Virus record (IMG/VR): IMGVR_UViG_2695420564_000011
Source: a virus
Taxonomy: Duplodnaviria; Heunggongvirae; Uroviricota; Caudoviricetes
Length of the DNA: 7,332 nt
Direction: 5' to 3' (one strand)
Below are positions 1 through 7,332 of the stretch, piece after piece. Position numbers and translations under genes: made by a program. Each line of letters begins with the position of its first letter. Position 1 is the stretch's first letter. The notes under the pieces are model-generated. The model made no database searches. It saw only the letters and a list, made by a program, of their open reading frames with translations, and was not told the origin of the DNA.

Positions 1-648
1 ATGAAAATCGCCGATCTCGCTGAAGCAATAGGAGTGGATGCGGCGAATATCTCACGCCTGGAAACAGGTAAGCAGAAACAATTCACTGAACAAGCCCTGA
101 GTAATATTGCCAGGAGCTTAGGTGTTGATATTGCAGATCTCTTTACCTCAGACTTCAAAAGTAATACTGTATGTAAAAACAGTGCTTGTGAGGATGTTGC
201 GCAGGTGAAGGATGTATTCCGTATTGAAATGCTGGATGTCAGTGCCAGTGCGGGAAATGGCCTTATCCAGGGCGGTGATGTCATTGATGTGATTCATGCC
301 ATTGAATACAGAACTGATAATGCTGTATCGATGTTTGGCGGACGGCCAGCCAATCACATTAAAGTTATCAACGTTCGTGGGGACAGTATGTGTCCAACCA
401 TTGAGCCAGGAGATCTCATCTTCGTTGATGTCAGTATCAATCAGTTTGATGGAGATGGTATCTATGTATTTGGTTTTGATGATAAAATTTATGTCAAACG
501 ACTGCAAATGATACCTGACAAACTACTGGTGATTTCTGATAACCAGATTTACCGTGAATGGGGAATTACCAGCGAAAATGAACACCGGTTTATGGTCTTT
601 GGAAAGGTCTTAATCAGCCAGTCACAAACCCTTAAGCGACACAATTAA
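1..648 (+). CDS. CI-like prophage repressor (HTH_XRE DNA-binding domain + S24 LexA-type autopeptidase domain); probably 5'-truncated by the window edge
   Basis: HTH recognition segment KIADLAEAIGVDAANISRLETGK sits at the extreme N-terminus with no room for helix 1, so the gene likely starts upstream of the window. C-terminal domain has a candidate Ala-Gly cleavage site (SASAGNG), a GDSM serine motif (VRGDSMCPTIEPGDLIFVD) and a VKRL lysine motif (IYVKRLQM), matching the LexA/lambda CI Ser-Lys dyad. Stop TAA at 646-648. Confidence 0.85.
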   Translation: MKIADLAEAIGVDAANISRLETGKQKQFTEQALSNIARSLGVDIADLFTSDFKSNTVCKNSACEDVAQVKDVFRIEMLDVSASAGNGLIQGGDVIDVIHAIEYRTDNAVSMFGGRPANHIKVINVRGDSMCPTIEPGDLIFVDVSINQFDGDGIYVFGFDDKIYVKRLQMIPDKLLVISDNQIYREWGITSENEHRFMVFGKVLISQSQTLKRHN

Positions 649-668
649 CCCTTACCTCCTCATCAATT

Positions 669-690
669 AGCCACCCGAAGGTGGCTTTTC
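669..690 (+). terminator. Intrinsic terminator downstream of the repressor gene
   Basis: GCCACC (670-675) pairs with GGTGGC (680-685) around a CGAA loop, followed by TTTTC. Lies 22 nt after the repressor stop codon. Confidence 0.6.
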
Positions 691-703
691 ATTACCCATT
701 AAA

Positions 704-742
704 TTGCATATCTCGCAACAAAAACACTTGCATAATGCGCAA
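704..742. promoter_or_regulatory. Two related 15-bp dyad-symmetric operator-like sites (TTGCATATCTCGCAA at 704-718; TTGCATAATGCGCAA at 728-742)
   Basis: Both sites have the form TTGC-N7-GCAA with inverted outer arms. Centres are 24 bp apart, similar to lambdoid operator spacing. They sit between the repressor gene and the downstream operon, and the second overlaps a candidate -35. Confidence 0.5.
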
Positions 743-756
743 CTTCATTTTATCTT
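728..756 (+). promoter_or_regulatory. Candidate sigma70 promoter (pL-like) driving the rightward accessory operon
   Basis: -35 TTGCAT (728-733), 17-bp spacer, -10 TATCTT (751-756). The -35 overlaps operator-like site 2. No experimental support; the -10 matches consensus at 4 of 6 positions. Confidence 0.35.
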
Positions 757-1168
757 TCTTTCCAGACAAACAAACAAGGTACTAACAAAATTTGGTTGTA
801 ACACGGCGTATGGCACATGCGTCGTTAGCGGTCTGGGGACGTTAAAGGGGACAATCCACTCCTTGCTCGGGCAAACAAACCAGGTAGCCGGAATGTGCAA
901 GTCAATGATGATGCTGATAAGACGCCTAACCAGCGTCGCGATTCGGTTTGACGCCTGGGAAGAGACCAGGGTGCAACGATGAGGGCATTTATGGAACCGC
1001 GACAAAGTGTGGTGCCGTAACTGGCTAAGTGCTCTCAGCGTTGTGGTAATCCGCGAAATGGCGCGGCGGTAAGTATGGCGGGGTTATTCCTTCCCCGTTG
1101 AGGACACCGGGTTGTCAGGTTGACCATACGCTTAAGTGACAAGCCCACCACAACAGCCACTGCTTTGG

Positions 1169-1213
1169 CGGTACCAGTTTGTACACTTGCTTCCGGCTGG
1201 TACCGCTCTTTTT
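1169..1213 (+). terminator. Terminator-like hairpin inside the leader (CGGTACCAG ... CTGGTACCG followed by CTCTTTTT)
   Basis: 9-bp perfect stem (1169-1177 / 1197-1205) with a 19-nt loop, followed by a T-rich tract at 1206-1213. The large loop is atypical for a strong intrinsic terminator, so this may be an attenuator or pause site. Confidence 0.4.
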
Positions 1214-1302
1214 ACAAAACAGAGAAGAGCATCACCGGACGACGGGCTCATAACCCAATCCACCCGGGCGGCTGCCACCGCAGGTGCTCTTCTCTGTTTT
1301 GT
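1214..1302. repeat. 18-bp perfect inverted repeat (ACAAAACAGAGAAGAGCA at 1214-1231; reverse complement TGCTCTTCTCTGTTTTGT at 1285-1302) flanking a 53-bp spacer
   Basis: Read directly from the sequence; arms are exact reverse complements. Located about 50 nt upstream of the yfdP-like start codon. Would form a long RNA hairpin or a DNA cruciform/binding site. Confidence 0.9.
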
Positions 1303-1350
1303 GGAGAAACCAACCGACCTTGCAGGGTCGATATGATGAGGAGCAGCAAA

Positions 1351-1713
1351 ATGGCTAGCGAACGCAGTACTGATGTGCAGGCATTTATCGGGGAGCTGGA
1401 CGGCGGCGTATTTGAAACCAAAATCGGCGCTGTTCTCAGTGAAGTCGCTTCAGGTGTGATGAACACGAAAACCAAAGGGAAGGTCTCGCTCAACCTGGAA
1501 ATCGAACCGTTTGATGAGAACCGTGTGAAAATAAAACACAAACTCTCATATGTTCGTCCGACTAACCGCGGGAAAATTTCCGAAGAAGACACCACCGAAA
1601 CGCCGATGTATGTCAATCGCGGTGGTCGCCTGACTATTCTGCAGGAAGACCAAGGACAATTACTGACTCTTGCCGGTGAACCTGACGGAAAACTCCGCGC
1701 AGCAGGTCATTAA
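1351..1713 (+). CDS. yfdP: YfdP-like prophage protein, 120 aa, function unknown
   Basis: ATG at 1351 is preceded by GAGGA (1338-1342) at 8-nt spacing. Upstream in-frame sequence is non-protein-like and overlaps the leader hairpins. Alternative start at 1333 (MMRSSKM...). Length of 120 aa matches my recollection of E. coli CPS-53 YfdP; not verified by search. Confidence 0.7.
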   Translation: MASERSTDVQAFIGELDGGVFETKIGAVLSEVASGVMNTKTKGKVSLNLEIEPFDENRVKIKHKLSYVRPTNRGKISEEDTTETPMYVNRGGRLTILQEDQGQLLTLAGEPDGKLRAAGH

Positions 1714-1778
1714 TATCGTTCTTAATTAACTGATTATTTATCTCATCACTGAATATCCTTATATAGTGAGGACTTATT

Positions 1779-2603
1779 ATGTCTCAGAACTTAGACGCAA
1801 CCGCAATTAATCAAATCCATGCCCTTATTTCTGCTCAGGGTGTTAATGAAATTATTAGTAAGATTGGTGCCGATGCTGTGGCATTGCCTGAGAATTTCCG
1901 CATTCATGATCTGGAAAAATTTAATTTAAATCGCTTCCGTTTCCGTGGTGCGCTTTCCACTGCCAGCATCGATGACTTTACCCGTTATTCTAAAGATCTT
2001 GCAGATGAAGGCACCCGCTGCTTTATCGATGCCGATAATATGCGTGCCGTCAGTGTGCTTAACCTGGGTACTATTGATGAACCAGGTCACGCAGATAACA
2101 CCGCCACTCTCAAACTGAAAAAGACAGCACCGTTCTCTGCTCTGTTGTCTGTTAATGGCGAGCGTAACTCCCAAAAGTCACTGGCAGAATGGATTGAAGA
2201 CTGGGCCGACTACCTTGTGGGCTTTGATGCTAATGGTGACGCCATTCAGGCAACCAAAGCGGCTGCGGCGATCCGTAAAATCACAATTGAAGCGAACCAG
2301 ACCGCTGATTTTGAAGACAATGACTTCAGCGGCAAACGCTCCCTGATGGAGTCTGTCGAAGCGAAGACCAAAGACATTATGCCAGTGGCATTTGAATTTA
2401 AATGCGTTCCGTTTGAAGGCCTGAAAGAACGTCCGTTTAAATTACGCCTCAGCATTATCACTGGCGATCGTCCTGTACTGGTTCTGCGCATTATTCAGCT
2501 GGAAGCGGTGCAGGAAGAAATGGCTAACGAATTTCGTGATCTGCTTGTTGAGAAATTTAAAGACAGCAAAGTAGAAACCTTTATTGGTACTTTCACCGCC
2601 TGA
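1779..2603 (+). CDS. yfdQ: YfdQ-like prophage protein (DUF2303 family), 274 aa
   Basis: ATG at 1779 with TGAGGA RBS 8 nt upstream. N-terminus [12 protein letters not shown] and the 274-aa length match my recollection of CPS-53 YfdQ; not verified. Confidence 0.8.
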
Positions 2604-2615
2604 TTTCATTACTGC

Positions 2616-2637
2616 AAATGCCCCTGCGGGGGCATTT
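2616..2637. other. Hairpin in the yfdQ-yfdR intergenic region (AAATGCCCC-TGCG-GGGGCATTT)
   Basis: 9-bp inverted repeat with a 4-nt loop, 13 nt after the yfdQ stop. Only a short T-run follows, so it is at best a weak terminator or an RNA processing/stability element. Confidence 0.35.
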
Positions 2638-2730
2638 ATGGAAACATAATTTACTCAATAATCGCCGGATGGTGAGGGCTTCCTTTTACCAGAATTCAGC
2701 GCGGTGCAGCGCATATACGTGGAGAACAAA

Positions 2731-3267
2731 ATGTCATTTATTAAAACTTTTTCCGGGAAGCATTTTTATTATGACAAGATAAATAAAGACGACATCGTTA
2801 TTAACGATATCGCGGTTTCCCTTTCAAATATCTGTCGCTTTGCAGGACATCTTTCACACTTCTACAGCGTCGCCCAACATGCGGTGCTTTGCAGCCAGCT
2901 GGTACCGCAGGAATTTGCTTTTGAAGCGTTAATGCATGATGCAACAGAAGCATATTGCCAGGACATCCCCGCACCACTGAAACGCCTTCTTCCTGACTAT
3001 AAACGGATGGAAGAAAAAATAGACGCCGTAATCCGTGAGAAATACGGGTTACCTCCTGTTATGAGCACGCCAGTGAAATATGCCGATCTCATTATGCTGG
3101 CAACCGAACGCCGCGATCTCGGGCTTGATGATGGTTCTTTCTGGCCTGTACTGGAAGGTATCCCGGCGACAGAGATGTTCAAAGTTATTCCACTGTCACC
3201 AGGCCATGCCTACGGGATGTTTATGGAACGTTTTAACGAGTTATCGGGGTTACGCAAATGCGCATGA
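2731..3267 (+). CDS. yfdR: YfdR-like HD-domain phosphohydrolase (5'-deoxynucleotidase family), 178 aa
   Basis: ATG at 2731 with GGAGA RBS (2721-2725) at 5-nt spacing; the track's upstream GTG start at 2704 is less likely. HD signature present (H..H ... LMHDATEAY). MSFIKTFSGKHFYYDKI N-terminus and 178-aa length match my recollection of CPS-53 YfdR. Confidence 0.85.
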   Translation: MSFIKTFSGKHFYYDKINKDDIVINDIAVSLSNICRFAGHLSHFYSVAQHAVLCSQLVPQEFAFEALMHDATEAYCQDIPAPLKRLLPDYKRMEEKIDAVIREKYGLPPVMSTPVKYADLIMLATERRDLGLDDGSFWPVLEGIPATEMFKVIPLSPGHAYGMFMERFNELSGLRKCA

Positions 3268-3845
3268 ATGTTTTCGAAATGGAAGGGTTTCTTCGCGGGA
3301 AATGTGTACCGCGAGATCTGAAAGTGAACGAAACAAACGCTGAGTACCTAGTGCGTAAATTTGCTGAAGCTGAGGCCAAGTGCGCGGCGCTGGCTGAACG
3401 TATCGAAGAGTTACAGACAAAACCTACGCCAGATTCGTTTGGCATCATCGGTGAAAATATTCGAACACAGGATAATCGAATAACGTCAGACCCTATGTTT
3501 TGTGTGTATCAAAAGCGCGAAATTGTTGTTGATGCTGATTATGACTATGACCGGATTGTCTGGGTTGATGAAGATGGCAATGAAGCCAATAAACTCCAAA
3601 GTCGTCGTCTCGAACCACTTCATGAAAACTTTCGGGAACCACCAGAAAAATGGCGGCGCGTTGCTGTGAAAGATATTGATGAATTCGTTACCTGCTGTTT
3701 CACCGAACAGGGTTGTAAAGACTACCTGGCAGCCAATGGTCACAATCTTCGCTTGCCATTTATATATGTAAAAAGCGGTTTCAGGAACGCTGAATATATC
3801 GGCATAAGAACCTGGCTTGCTGGCATTCGCATCAAAGGAGAGTGA
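3258..3845 (+). CDS. YfdS-like prophage protein, 195 aa (longer than the 120-aa K-12 YfdS as I remember it)
   Basis: Start ATG at 3258 overlaps the yfdR 3' end; alternative ATG at 3264 overlaps the yfdR stop as ATGA, suggesting translational coupling. Stop TGA at 3843-3845. N-terminal ~75 aa look coiled-coil-like (AEAEAKCAALAERIEELQ). Confidence 0.65.
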   Translation: MRMNVFEMEGFLRGKCVPRDLKVNETNAEYLVRKFAEAEAKCAALAERIEELQTKPTPDSFGIIGENIRTQDNRITSDPMFCVYQKREIVVDADYDYDRIVWVDEDGNEANKLQSRRLEPLHENFREPPEKWRRVAVKDIDEFVTCCFTEQGCKDYLAANGHNLRLPFIYVKSGFRNAEYIGIRTWLAGIRIKGE

Positions 3846-3846
3846 G

Positions 3847-4038
3847 ATGAACGGACAAATATCAATTGTTCGACCAGGAGCATGTGACGATCGCGAAATA
3901 CGAATGATTATTCGTCTGGCGATGGGGAAAACAATAACTGCTCTCATTACTCCAGAAAATCTCGCATTAGCATTAACAGGAAAGTCAGACCTGCCAGTAG
4001 AGCTAAAGCTGCGAAATGTTGAGATTAAGGTGAAATAG
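3847..4038 (+). CDS. Small prophage protein, 63 aa, unknown function
   Basis: ATG at 3847 sits 2 nt after the preceding stop, with AAGGAGAG RBS at 3835-3842. The track's longer start at 3817 would overlap the previous gene and is less likely. Confidence 0.55.
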   Translation: MNGQISIVRPGACDDREIRMIIRLAMGKTITALITPENLALALTGKSDLPVELKLRNVEIKVK

Positions 4039-4040
4039 CT

Positions 4041-4631
4041 ATGACCACTTTTACCAATAGCAAACTAACAGACGAATACGTTTCAAATGCAACGTTGATT
4101 CGGCTCATTCTGTGGGCTGACCAGCACAATAGCCATTATGTTGTAGCGGCTCTGCGCGAGCTACAGGAGCGCCGCAAGGCTGATAGTGCAGAACCTGTAA
4201 GCCAAACTTACAAGTTGCCAGTTAATACACCTTGCCAAGATGCGCCAGCCCATATCTGGCTGCAAACGGCTGGAGTATGGCCAGAAGATGGCGAGTTAAG
4301 CGAATTAACGTGGTGCAGCCACAATCAACACCATGATGACACGCTATATGTTCGAGCTGACCTTGTGAATGGCAACTATCCGGCAACTCCGGATGGTTGG
4401 ATAAGCTGTAGTGAGCGAATGCCTGAAATGGGAGAGCGACAATGCTATGTGTTAGCAGCTGACTTTAAAAACAACTACCCACCAAACATCCCCAACACTC
4501 AGGTCGGCGTATATGGCGACTGGTTTAATGATGGCAAGCCCACTTGGGATGACGGTGATGGCGAAGACCTGTATCTCAAAGAGGTAACCCACTGGATGCA
4601 GCTACCAGAACCGCCGCAGGAGGTGAAATGA
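4041..4631 (+). CDS. DUF551-family prophage protein, 196 aa
   Basis: C-terminal region (GWISCSERMPEMGERQCYVLAAD ... VTHWMQLPEPP) is characteristic of DUF551 proteins common in lambdoid early-left ea regions. Starts 3 nt after the previous stop. Confidence 0.75.
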   Translation: MTTFTNSKLTDEYVSNATLIRLILWADQHNSHYVVAALRELQERRKADSAEPVSQTYKLPVNTPCQDAPAHIWLQTAGVWPEDGELSELTWCSHNQHHDDTLYVRADLVNGNYPATPDGWISCSERMPEMGERQCYVLAADFKNNYPPNIPNTQVGVYGDWFNDGKPTWDDGDGEDLYLKEVTHWMQLPEPPQEVK

Positions 4632-4714
4632 TGAATTGGCCTGAAGCATTCACCGCAGTTGGAGTTGCAATAGCGGTGGCATTTATTCTGTATTCGCTTT
4701 TCCGCTGGGGATAA
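4628..4714 (+). CDS. 28-aa hydrophobic micropeptide (MMNWPEAFTAVGVAIAVAFILYSLFRWG), probable single-pass membrane peptide
   Basis: ATG at 4628 overlaps the DUF551 stop TGA (4629-4631) as ATGA. Single hydrophobic helix-length core, aromatic/basic C-terminus, stop TAA at 4712-4714. Below the ORF-track size cutoff; hand-translated. Confidence 0.4.
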   Translation: MMNWPEAFTAVGVAIAVAFILYSLFRWG

Positions 4715-4718
4715 AGGA

Positions 4719-4961
4719 ATGTTCGCTCTGATTCAACGTGGTCAGATATACACGGACAGAGCCGGATACCCTGTGGTGATTACTCGCAGTACTCAGCACT
4801 CAGTGTTCTTTCGACGCATGGACGGGCGCTCCGGACGGGTACGCATTGGTGAGTTCAACAACCTGTTCGAACATATTGACCAACAGGAGTACCGCAAAAT
4901 TCTGGCGGGCACTGAGCAGGAAATGCGCCTGAAAAAATTACGCGCAATGCAACGGAGGTGA
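4719..4961 (+). CDS. Small prophage protein, 80 aa, unknown function (possibly DUF4222-like; family assignment uncertain)
   Basis: ATG at 4719 is 5 nt after the micropeptide stop. Basic C-terminus (EQEMRLKKLRAMQRR). Stop TGA at 4959-4961. Confidence 0.65.
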   Translation: MFALIQRGQIYTDRAGYPVVITRSTQHSVFFRRMDGRSGRVRIGEFNNLFEHIDQQEYRKILAGTEQEMRLKKLRAMQRR

Positions 4962-4964
4962 TAC

Positions 4965-5099
4965 ATGCATACGGCTTTTGAGTTCTGGGTTCGCAAGACA
5001 TTCGGCAATCGCTACGACCTGACCCGTGATGTCGACGGCTTCTACTGCCGTGAAGTTGTGAAACGAATGTTTGACGTGTGGTGCCACTGCCGTGGATGA
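4965..5099 (+). CDS. 44-aa Cys-rich small protein (MHTAFEFWVRKTFGNRYDLTRDVDGFYCREVVKRMFDVWCHCRG)
   Basis: ATG at 4965 with GGAGG RBS (4954-4958) at 6-nt spacing, 4 nt after the previous stop. Stop TGA at 5097-5099. Hand-translated; not in the ORF track because of size. Confidence 0.45.
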   Translation: MHTAFEFWVRKTFGNRYDLTRDVDGFYCREVVKRMFDVWCHCRG

Positions 5100-5117
5100 A
5101 AGTTTTATGAGGTTGGC

Positions 5118-5236
5118 ATGCAGACAATCATCTATCAGATAACCCCCAGCAAATGGTGTACGGAGAGAGTCCTTATTGCATCAACAGGGCTAAAGCCCGG
5201 CACCATCGAGCGGGCCAGAAGAAAGTCATGGATGCA
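5118..5236 (+). CDS. N-terminal fragment (39 codons) of an excisionase/AlpA-like DNA-binding protein, truncated at the junction at 5237
   Basis: ATG at 5118 with GAGG RBS (5109-5112). Sequence MQTIIYQITPSKWCTERVLIASTGLKPGTIERARRKSWM resembles the W...T..ARR pattern of phage Xis-like winged-helix proteins. The reading frame then runs into antisense groEL sequence, which is not meaningful. Confidence 0.35.
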
Positions 5237-5237
5237 N

Positions 5238-6399
<1,162 letters not shown>

Positions 6400-6407
6400 N
6401 NGNNNNN

Positions 6408-6437
6408 ATAGCCGGTACCGGAAATGGTAATTTTCAT
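6408..6437 (-). pseudogene. ugd: First 10 codons of ugd (UDP-glucose 6-dehydrogenase; MKITISGTGY), joined through an N-block to the groEL fragment
   Basis: Reverse complement of 6408-6437 is ATGAAAATTACCATTTCCGGTACCGGCTAT, matching the Ugd N-terminus MKITISGTGYVGLSNG as I recall it. Expected position immediately downstream of gnd. Confidence 0.6.
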
Positions 6438-6510
6438 TTCATGCTCTCAGAATTAACTTAGCTGTGAATCATGATGTTTTAGCATCCTGATAGAAGTTAA
6501 AATTTTTAGC

Positions 6511-6538
6511 GCTACGCTGATCCCAGCATCAGCGTAGC
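6511..6538. repeat. 11-bp perfect inverted repeat (GCTACGCTGAT / ATCAGCGTAGC) with 6-nt loop in the gnd-ugd intergenic region
   Basis: Read directly from sequence. No T-run follows on either strand, so it is not a canonical terminator; it could be a regulator binding site or RNA stem in the ugd promoter/leader region. Confidence 0.8.
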
Positions 6539-6624
6539 AACAAAATCAGACTTTACTTATAAGTATAGCTGATATTTATTAAGTTAATATTAAGCAATGA
6601 AATTTAATCTATAGGATTATTGGC

Positions 6625-6655
6625 AAAAAAAACCCGGCAATATATGCCGGGCCTC
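6625..6655 (-). terminator. Intrinsic terminator of gnd
   Basis: On the minus strand: GAGG-CCCGGCA-TATAT-TGCCGGG followed by eight T (plus-strand A-run 6625-6632). Lies about 24 nt downstream of the gnd stop codon. Confidence 0.85.
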
Positions 6656-6678
6656 AATTTATTGCTGATTAAATTAGA

Positions 6679-7332
6679 TTAATCCAGCCATTCAGTATGG
6701 AACACACCTTCTTTATCAATGCGCTTATAAGTATGCGCACCGAAATAGTCACGCTGAGCCTGGATCAGGTTCGCAGGCAGCACCGCGGCACGGTAGCTAT
6801 CGTAATAAGCAACCGCCGCAGAGAAGGTTGGAACTGGGATACCGTTTTGCACTGCATAAGCGACGACATCACGCAGTGCCTGCTGGTAGTCATCGGCGAT
6901 TTTCTTGAAATACGGAGCTAACAGCAGGTTAGCGATTTTTGGATTTTCGGCATAGGCATCGGTGATTTTCTGCAGGAACTGCGCACGGATGATGCAGCCA
7001 GCACGGAAAATCTTCGCGATTTCACCGTAGTTCAGATCCCAGTTGTATTCTTCAGACGCAGCACGCAGCTGAGAGAAGCCCTGAGCGTAAGAAACGATTT
7101 TTCCCAGATACAGCGCACGACGAACTTTCTCGATAAACTCAGCCTTATCGCCTGCTGGCTGCGCTTGCGGACCAGAAAGTACTTTAGATGCGGCAACACG
7201 CTGATCTTTCAGAGAAGAGATATAACGTGCAAACACAGACTCGGTAATCAGCGACAGCGGTTCGCCGAGATCCAGCGCACTCTGACTGGTCCATTTACCG
7301 GTGCCTTTATTAGCCGCTTCATCCAGGATCAC
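6679..7332 (-). CDS. gnd: 6-phosphogluconate dehydrogenase (decarboxylating), C-terminal 217 aa; 5' part lies beyond the window
   Basis: Translation ...[51 protein letters not shown] ... [24 protein letters not shown] matches the enterobacterial Gnd C-terminal domain. Stop TAA at 6679-6681 on the minus strand; ORF open to the window edge. Confidence 0.95.

Follow-up and report, generated by a model that had tools for sequence, protein, structure and literature searches.

In the lambda N leader an RNase III site lies between nutL and the N ribosome-binding site, and cleavage there is reported by Court and colleagues to uncouple translation of the first gene from the leader RNA upstream of it. 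A second leader processed by this enzyme is that of dicBF in prophage Qin: RNase III makes a 190-nt DicF species there and read-through transcripts reach dicB and ydfD (PMC10448788), and Table S1 of PMC5371410 records reads that differ with rnc in the spacer between dicF and dicB. About 22 bp of duplex fit into RNase III, and the enzyme cuts intramolecular stems twice, in a staggered fashion (PMC6212723). The HK022 put RNA consists of two consecutive stem-loops of about 70 nt that lie upstream of the terminators they suppress and are present in both early operons (PMC9378689), and in the metY leader terminators are followed by an RNase III site (rimP-metY) before the first ORF (PMC5371410 Table S1). 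Here, we describe an RNA element in a stretch of 7,332 nucleotides from a Caudoviricetes virus (IMG/VR record IMGVR_UViG_2695420564_000011), hereafter the window. As a probable processing stem in a lambdoid early leader it would belong to an already-known kind; its unexpected feature is an arm that resembles initiator tRNA.

The window comes from a lambdoid prophage, and the genes downstream of the leader make up its early-left (pL-type) operon, like that of mEp460, SfV, ST64B, LLS and the defective e14. The features that make up its leader and surroundings are as follows.

1 to 648, plus strand: gene of a CI-type repressor, HTH plus S24 peptidase (Pfam HTH_3/HTH_26 and Peptidase_S24)
669 to 686, plus strand: terminator-like hairpin after the repressor gene, from a terminator scan
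704 to 719 and 728 to 743, plus strand: two operator-like repeats, TTGCATANNNCGCAAC, read from the sequence
1029 to 1037, plus strand: the stretch GUGCUCUCA, which we take to be boxA-like, just before D1 and loosely conserved in seven leaders
1039 to 1156, plus strand: D1, a multi-branch RNA domain closed by GUUGUGG / CCACAAC
1165 to 1213, plus strand: intrinsic terminator, with hairpin 1167-1179 / 1195-1207 and U-tract 1209-1213
1351 to 1713, plus strand: yfdP, the first early-left gene here, from the annotation of near-identical prophages and the ORF list

The repressor gene, similar in size and collinear in position to that of mEp460 gp38 (215 aa), identifies the region ahead of the early-left operon as the immunity region, and similarity to prophages of other immunity types begins at 775, just past the operator-like repeats. 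A candidate pL-type promoter may be read there (-35 TTGCAT at 728, -10 TATCTT at 751), and a promoter scan gave no consensus promoter near 704-756; by gene order alone, transcription of the element would come from such a pL-type promoter. The interval between the repressor gene and yfdP, of about 700 nt, contains no credible plus-strand gene. The yfdP start codon (ATG at 1351) is preceded by the Shine-Dalgarno sequence GAGGAG at 1337-1342, and downstream of yfdP follow yfdQ (DUF2303), then a gene that carries the yfdR (5'-deoxynucleotidase) label in near-identical prophages, and finally a DUF551 gene and a truncated excisionase.

Within this interval lies an exact 18-bp inverted repeat, ACAAAACAGAGAAGAGCA / TGCTCTTCTCTGTTTTGT, at 1214-1231 and 1285-1302 with a spacer of 53 nt, just as the original prediction had it, and it ends 49 nt before the yfdP ATG, which agrees with the predicted distance of about 50 nt. 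The assertion that such a repeat is unlikely to arise by chance in 7 kb also holds, given an expectation of about 1e-5 in 7.3 kb (about 7e5 position pairs x 4^-18). A repeat search lists the same feature as 25-nt arms, 1214-1238 / 1278-1302, that are 88% complementary and contain the exact repeat. The repeat is the closing helix, P1, of an RNA domain of about 95 nt that forms a three-way junction P1-P2-P3, and the domain and its 3' flank comprise the following parts.

1214 to 1233, plus strand: 5' arm of P1 (fold and covariation), containing the originally predicted arm 1214-1231 and possibly extending upstream to 1209
1235 to 1267, plus strand: P2, an arm of about 10 bp with internal loops and the most conserved sequence of the family
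1243 to 1256, plus strand: tip of P2, CGGGCUCAUAACCC, with three G-C pairs and the loop CUCAUAA, near-invariant
1268 to 1281, plus strand: P3, a short hairpin of variable sequence in which 4 of 4 pairs have changed on both sides
1283 to 1302, plus strand: 3' arm of P1 (fold and covariation), containing the originally predicted arm 1285-1302
1303 to 1310, plus strand: GGAGAAAC, conserved in the enterobacterial early-left clade
1313 to 1332, plus strand: P4, a hairpin with a UUGCAG loop that leaves the Shine-Dalgarno sequence uncovered (fold)

P1 comprises 20 bp (1214-1233 / 1283-1302), the extension past 18 bp being made by U.G and C-G pairs, and grows to 25 bp (1209-1233 / 1283-1307) when GGAGA is paired with the U-tract ahead of the 5' arm; since GGAGAAAC persists in a few copies that lack a T-run, this pairing accounts for its conservation only in part. 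The predicted RNA fold of 1214-1302 has an energy of -45.9 kcal/mol (z = -7.1, with 0 of 200 shuffles as good), and with flanks added the stretch folds (1207-1310) at -51.6 kcal/mol with a 25-bp closing helix (z = -7.6). The duplex had been described as perfect, which is true of the window but not of most relatives: the pair 1224/1292 (position 11 of the 5' arm) is non-standard in 28 of 34 representatives, mostly C.C or A.C. A G-C pair of the window's P1 is replaced by G.U in most E. coli copies. The unbroken helix is thus a peculiarity of the window's lineage, and a central mismatch is usual in representative relatives. Two neighbouring features had been missed in the original prediction, namely the interior of the spacer, which is the family's most conserved part, and the terminator abutting the 5' arm.

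BLAST against phages finds 1202-1314 about 86% conserved in Salmonella and Klebsiella phages with otherwise unrelated flanks, and a pattern scan of genome and viral collections returned well over 100 copies, from Escherichia, Shigella, Salmonella, Klebsiella, Citrobacter, Enterobacter, Kosakonia and Leclercia and further from Phytobacter, Pseudescherichia, Pseudocitrobacter, Buttiauxella, Mixta, Erwinia, Izhakiella and Pantoea. Some match to 1000-1360 is present in 4757 of 5426 complete E. coli genomes, and carriers of the element include the functional phages mEp460, SfV, SfIV, ST64B, cdtI, Stx2c phages and LLS. A search for related loci based on YfdP gave identical proteins only and hence no independent sample. 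The element has so far been uncatalogued and matches no Rfam 15 family (noise only for the whole window at E <= 1 and for 1000-1360 at E <= 10); in existing annotations it is either absent or covered by doubtful small ORFs, such as ymfH in e14 and gp36 in mEp460.

Across more than 10 enterobacterial genera the three-way junction is kept through compensatory changes and G.U pairs. In a covariation alignment of 34 representatives (<=95% identity), 94% of cells are paired, compared with 35-48% for slid partners, and 10 of 34 pairs have changed on both sides; at one P1 position, for instance, G-C and C-G stand at 18:16. When two divergent Pantoea copies are included, in an alignment that was fitted to the model and includes one reverse-strand row of the window, this rises to 17 of 34 pairs, a number reached by 0 of 500 shuffles. 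Compensation in P2 is seen among the representatives as CCAGG/CCTGG, and the outer P2 of Pantoea dispersa reads CGCAU/AUGCG instead of CCGGG/CCCGG; its P1 and P3 are also rewritten, and RNAfold gives the same junction. The Pantoea copies have 2x2 internal loops, and the P3 of some relatives carries an insertion of 25-40 nt.

A conserved structured RNA is almost certainly encoded on the plus strand at the element. Helices of the relatives contain 57 G.U cells against 20 A.C cells, and the structure hence belongs to plus-strand RNA, not to DNA. The covariance model agrees, with about 115 bits on the plus strand and 40-50 bits on the reverse, albeit for a model built on plus-strand sequences. The original prediction had also offered a site in DNA, a palindrome or cruciform bound by a recombinase or regulator, and the perfect 18-bp palindromic pair of the window would suit such a site. 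We now regard it as barely credible: the arms stay complementary through G.U pairs, which read as A.C in the opposite strand, most relatives have a mismatch halfway along the helix, and the inner hairpins covary.

The 5' arm of P1 abuts a predicted terminator. The hairpin at 1165-1213 is G+C-rich (-21.2 kcal/mol, z = -4.7) and followed directly by a U-tract, UCUUUUU, that ends at 1213, and the arrangement is kept in relatives; a simple terminator scanner missed it because the loop is too long. A T-run stands directly 5' of P1 in 133 of 139 distinct contexts, and 129 of the 133 also have a stable hairpin. The terminator stems of relatives are unrelated in sequence, with the hairpin and T5-7 kept. 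A promoter inside or before the element was considered and rejected, given that consensus sites are absent and the preceding region is a covarying terminator hairpin.

The same position relative to a terminator would fit a passive insulator or stabiliser that is never cleaved and that blocks Rho loading or 5'-end-dependent decay, or sequesters the U-tail of the upstream sRNA. Such an element would be expected in untranslated RNA and right after a terminator, as is almost always the case, and in the fold GGAGA at 1303-1310 is able to pair with the terminator U-tract while the ribosome-binding site is left free. However, a structure with a passive role has no need of a 22-nt tip sequence that is nearly invariant from genus to genus, and such a role does not explain this tip together with the compensatory changes. 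We consider a purely passive role improbable.

The leader in the window is homologous to that of the dicBF operon in prophage Qin, and the two are collinear. The stretch 1165-1213 aligns with the DicF 3' hairpin and terminator, with TTTGGCGGTA(C/T)CAGTT and CCGC..TTTTT common to both. The DicF 5' seed is absent from the window, and the Rfam DicF model (RF00039) gave no match at E <= 10. In the Qin-type prophage of E. coli LF82, DicF itself is found (72.5 bits with Rfam, locus L329 2133-2184), and window 1040-1146 is almost the same as the sequence immediately 5' of it; in 18 other loci the DicF model gave no match upstream of the element. The RNase III-made 5' end of the 190-nt DicF of K-12 would map approximately to the 5' base of D1, and the K-12 domain that follows the DicF U-tract has a predicted closing helix of about 21 bp in the same layout as P1.

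P1, with its 20-25 bp, is as long as the helix of about two turns (about 20-22 bp) expected of an RNase III substrate. Given the processing in Qin and the length and layout of the helix, cleavage of P1 by RNase III seems to us the likeliest mechanism, and we put the chance that the enzyme indeed cuts the element, by a double cut of P1 in read-through RNA, at about even. Under this mechanism the domain would be transcribed only by polymerases that pass the DicF-type terminator at its 5' arm, and in the read-through RNA P1 would form a duplex of 20-25 bp that includes the terminator U-tract. A double cut by host RNase III would then separate D1 and the DicF-like hairpin from the downstream mRNA, provide the mRNA with a new 5' end about 45-60 nt before the first start codon, ahead of P4 and the ribosome-binding site, and free the P2-P3 core as a small stable RNA. 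The conserved central P1 mismatch of most relatives and the 2x2 loops of Pantoea could weaken, redirect or even prevent cleavage, and P1 could be a mere clamp that holds the P2/P3 core. For the e14 copy, which is loop-mutated and lies in a repressed prophage, K-12 RNase III data contain nothing (PMC5371410). Processing alone fails to explain the conservation of P2, the strongest signal, because RNase III needs no specific P2 sequence, and the near-invariant P2 arm implies a second partner that recognises the core.

The first gene after the element varies and includes two yfdP types, rdgC (e.g. in EcN), xisE in e14 and others. Hence, the element belongs to the operon leader and not to yfdP. Of the control of yfdP and the accessory operon that had been proposed, what stands is an RNA in the early-left leader; specificity for yfdP does not, given that the element also precedes rdgC, xisE and lysis genes. 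Relatives have hairpins with similar loops at the place of P4. In two Pantoea genomes the element sits between the late antiterminator gene Q, with a DUF968 gene before Q, and the holin/lysozyme/Rz genes, directly after a tR'-type terminator. What stays constant is the order of parts: in a phage operon subject to read-through during lytic growth, the element comes first among the structured RNAs that follow the first terminator.

This placement brings to mind a cis-acting antiterminator RNA of the HK022 put kind, which would modify RNA polymerase to pass downstream terminators. Antiterminated operons of two types, the early-left and the late one, have the element at their head. The annotation of mEp460 contains no N gene, and for LLS the authors of the genome likewise found none and suggested put-like antitermination (PMC12315714). 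Several features of the element nevertheless disagree with such a role. A blastn comparison (word size 7) with the HK022 pL-nun and neighbouring regions gave chance-level matches only and thus no similarity to putL, and a long-range helix with a three-way junction takes the place of two consecutive hairpins. The mEp460 genome has a single copy and no pR-side twin in a whole-genome covariance-model search. The element lies downstream of the terminator most in need of suppression, no plus-strand intrinsic terminators are predicted in 1300-5300, and the Pantoea copies follow Q, which already supplies antitermination. A put-type function therefore seems to us quite improbable. As to a lambda-type nut site, motifs resembling boxA, at 1029-1037 and in the P1 3' arm, are variable, and no boxB was recognised.

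The most conserved part of the element, the P2 tip, shares 14 identical nt with E. coli initiator tRNA-fMet, whose anticodon stem-loop (anticodon CAU) it reproduces (16 of 17 aligned positions), and includes the three consecutive G-C pairs that mark initiator tRNAs. One of 5000 shuffles matched as highly, and a comparison with about 47 tRNA species would yield 8e-4 matches of this quality by expectation. The reference tRNA is 100% identical to a tRNA-Met gene found in all 5426 E. coli genomes (median of about 4 copies) and differs from MG1655 metY ('tRNA-initiator Met(CAU)') by one base outside the matched stretch. The pattern used to find copies fixed most tip positions, so that the unbiased test of conservation is confined to positions 32, 34 and 37, which nearly always read C, C and A. 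A dedicated scan turned up only about nine loci with a different base at position 34, several of them with other signs of decay. The tip is also kept in the Pantoea copies, despite their different P1, outer P2 and P3.

These observations would fit an initiator-tRNA mimic acting in trans, with P2 as the functional part and P1 and P3 only presenting it, a role compatible with processing. Whether released or still embedded, the RNA would bind or divert a factor that reads the tRNA-fMet anticodon arm; candidates would be IF3 together with the 30S P site, MetRS, or a nuclease from a toxin or defence system that attacks anticodon arms. The P2 arm of about 10 bp may also correspond in length to the stacked D and anticodon stems of tRNA, and lambdoid phages meet defences that cut anticodon arms, such as P2 Old (PMC12445682). 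Against this, the search pattern biased all but three tip positions, the stem below the three G-C pairs departs from tRNA with a C/AA internal loop, and the loop of the e14 copy reads UUAAUAA. ARAGORN found no tRNA or tmRNA, the Rfam tRNA model gave no match at E <= 10, and the covariance model of the element matches the metY anticodon arm only locally. The literature searched contains no description of the element or of a prophage initiator-tRNA mimic. We therefore treat a function of its own for the tRNA-like arm as a tentative proposal, and mimicry in trans as possible, with perhaps one chance in a handful in its favour. The full chain of events, in which RNase III frees an anticodon-arm mimic that is made only on lytic read-through and that acts on a host or defence factor recognising tRNA-fMet, is an unlikely one in our estimate. 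Such a freed mimic would be a decoy or a means of reprogramming initiation, and nucleases of the VapC or Old kind would be among its candidate partners.

Two other uses of the tip were considered. RNAduplex against mEp460 and the window returned only the trivial antisense site as a target of P2, the next best hit (-36 kcal/mol) being in the tail-gene region. Kissing between the loop and the Shine-Dalgarno region (CUCAU with AUGAG at 1335-1339) was rejected, since relatives keep only the generic UGAGG of ribosome-binding sites.

Lambdoid phages often have tRNA genes in the interval from Q to the lysis genes, and the Pantoea copies sit in this interval. Together with the identity to tRNA-fMet, this would fit a decayed tRNA-gene remnant without present function. 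We hold this origin to be very improbable as a full account, given that a remnant would not keep a compensated three-way junction in more than 10 genera, or a fixed position after a terminator.

Recognition of a structured RNA at this locus corrects annotations of the ymfH and gp36 type and extends the picture of the dicBF-type leader to that of a string of processed RNA modules. It also offers a handle on how lambdoid phages without N manage their early-left transcripts. Should the initiator-tRNA-like arm have a function, it would represent a compact and testable case of anticodon-arm mimicry by a temperate phage, with a bearing on tRNA-targeting defences and phage counter-measures.

Compared with the known systems, the element shares with HK022 put that it is a structured RNA encoded in cis near the start of an early operon in an N-less lambdoid phage. 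With initiator tRNA (metZWV, metY) it has 14 consecutive nucleotides in common, but neither a cloverleaf, nor an acceptor end, nor a T-loop. The leader of the metY-rimP-nusA-infB operon likewise has an initiator-tRNA sequence at the operon head; there, a real tRNA gene stands upstream of the terminators, whereas the element is an anticodon-arm look-alike downstream of a terminator, and a side-by-side reading reveals no visible similarity outside the anticodon arm. The lambda N leader differs from the element in that the two are unrelated in sequence, the window has neither an N gene nor a recognised boxB, its hairpin comes after a terminator, and the arm inside is conserved in a sequence-specific manner; what they have in common is a large long-range hairpin in a pL leader just upstream of the first ribosome-binding site. 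In the Qin dicBF leader the dependence on RNase III is known, while in the window it is predicted only, the window lacks the DicF seed, and the domain after the terminator is a different one, in the window a three-way junction with a tRNA-like arm. The order of parts is nevertheless the same in both, from a repressor-controlled early-left promoter through an sRNA/terminator and a domain closed by about 21 bp to the first gene.

Domain D1, a conserved multi-branch RNA in the early-left operon leader, is closed by GUUGUGG/CCACAAC, is directly preceded by a boxA-like GUGCUCUCA and recurs in other loci:

window 1039-1156, D1
2001-2107 of the E. coli LF82 locus with an Rfam DicF match (L329), D1
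related locus L331, D1-type domain

A second D1 type, GUGGUGAAUGCGGCU.AGCGCACGCGG ... CACCNGGCAC.ACAAC, is present in ST64B, SfV, e14, LLS and Kp4866; in prophage Qin it is located after the sRNA DicF, with a predicted closing helix of ~21 bp. D1-type modules are absent from Rfam and shuffle among leaders.

Hairpin P3 of the three-way-junction element and the hairpin 3' of the element often carry the same UUGCAG/UGGCAG motif in their loops, both in the window and among relatives in an alignment of 34 representative element copies:

window 1272-1277, motif in the P3 loop
window 1318-1323, motif in the loop of P4, the small hairpin 3' of the element

The repeated motif is a hint of one ligand shared by both loops, or of a loop-loop relation. 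Pantoea prophages have divergent element copies in the leader of the late operon, flanked by Q and the holin gene, with a tR'-like terminator directly 5' of the element:

Pantoea locus L069 2645-2745, minus strand, element copy
Pantoea locus L097 4878-4979, minus strand, element copy

A Mixta locus with an element copy (L049) also has, at a distance of ~4 kb and on the other strand of the locus (1130-1315, minus strand), Rfam matches to C4 antisense RNA and isrK, a P1/P4-type immunity RNA.

Several database ORFs overlap conserved RNA structures of the leader and are probably not genes:

window 1132-1278, minus (opposite) strand, mEp460 gp36
window 745-1005, minus (opposite) strand, mEp460 gp37
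e14 locus 2363-2674, ymfH, ymfI and ymfJ

At yfdP (window 1333-1353), in-frame ATGs at 1333 and 1336 lie upstream of the annotated start at 1351 and overlap the Shine-Dalgarno region.

Towards the 3' end of the window (5235-7332 region), the prophage breaks off abruptly within the excisionase gene, of which only ~40 residues match DUF1233, and the following pieces are found:

5235-6399, antisense, internal groEL fragment of 1165 bp
6564-6613, A+T-rich palindrome in the spacer after groEL (repeat search)
6625-6692, minus strand, terminator-like hairpin in the same spacer (weak Rfam Trp_leader match)
6682-7332, minus strand, 3' part of gnd

The window looks chimeric, whether through misassembly, rearrangement or construction, because the truncated prophage, groEL and gnd pieces are not adjacent in any complete E. 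coli genome.

Immediately 5' of the terminator hairpin, e14, SfV, ST64B, LLS and Kp4866 have UGCUGUGUG(U/A)AGUCUUG in common:

e14 locus about 2520-2550, UGCUGUGUG(U/A)AGUCUUG
L003, L005, L006 and L235 (related loci), matching stretches upstream of the element

The window has neither this stretch nor the DicF seed UUUCUGGUGACGUUU. In the five relatives it occupies the place of that seed, and these stretches may be DicF-like sRNAs with another seed.
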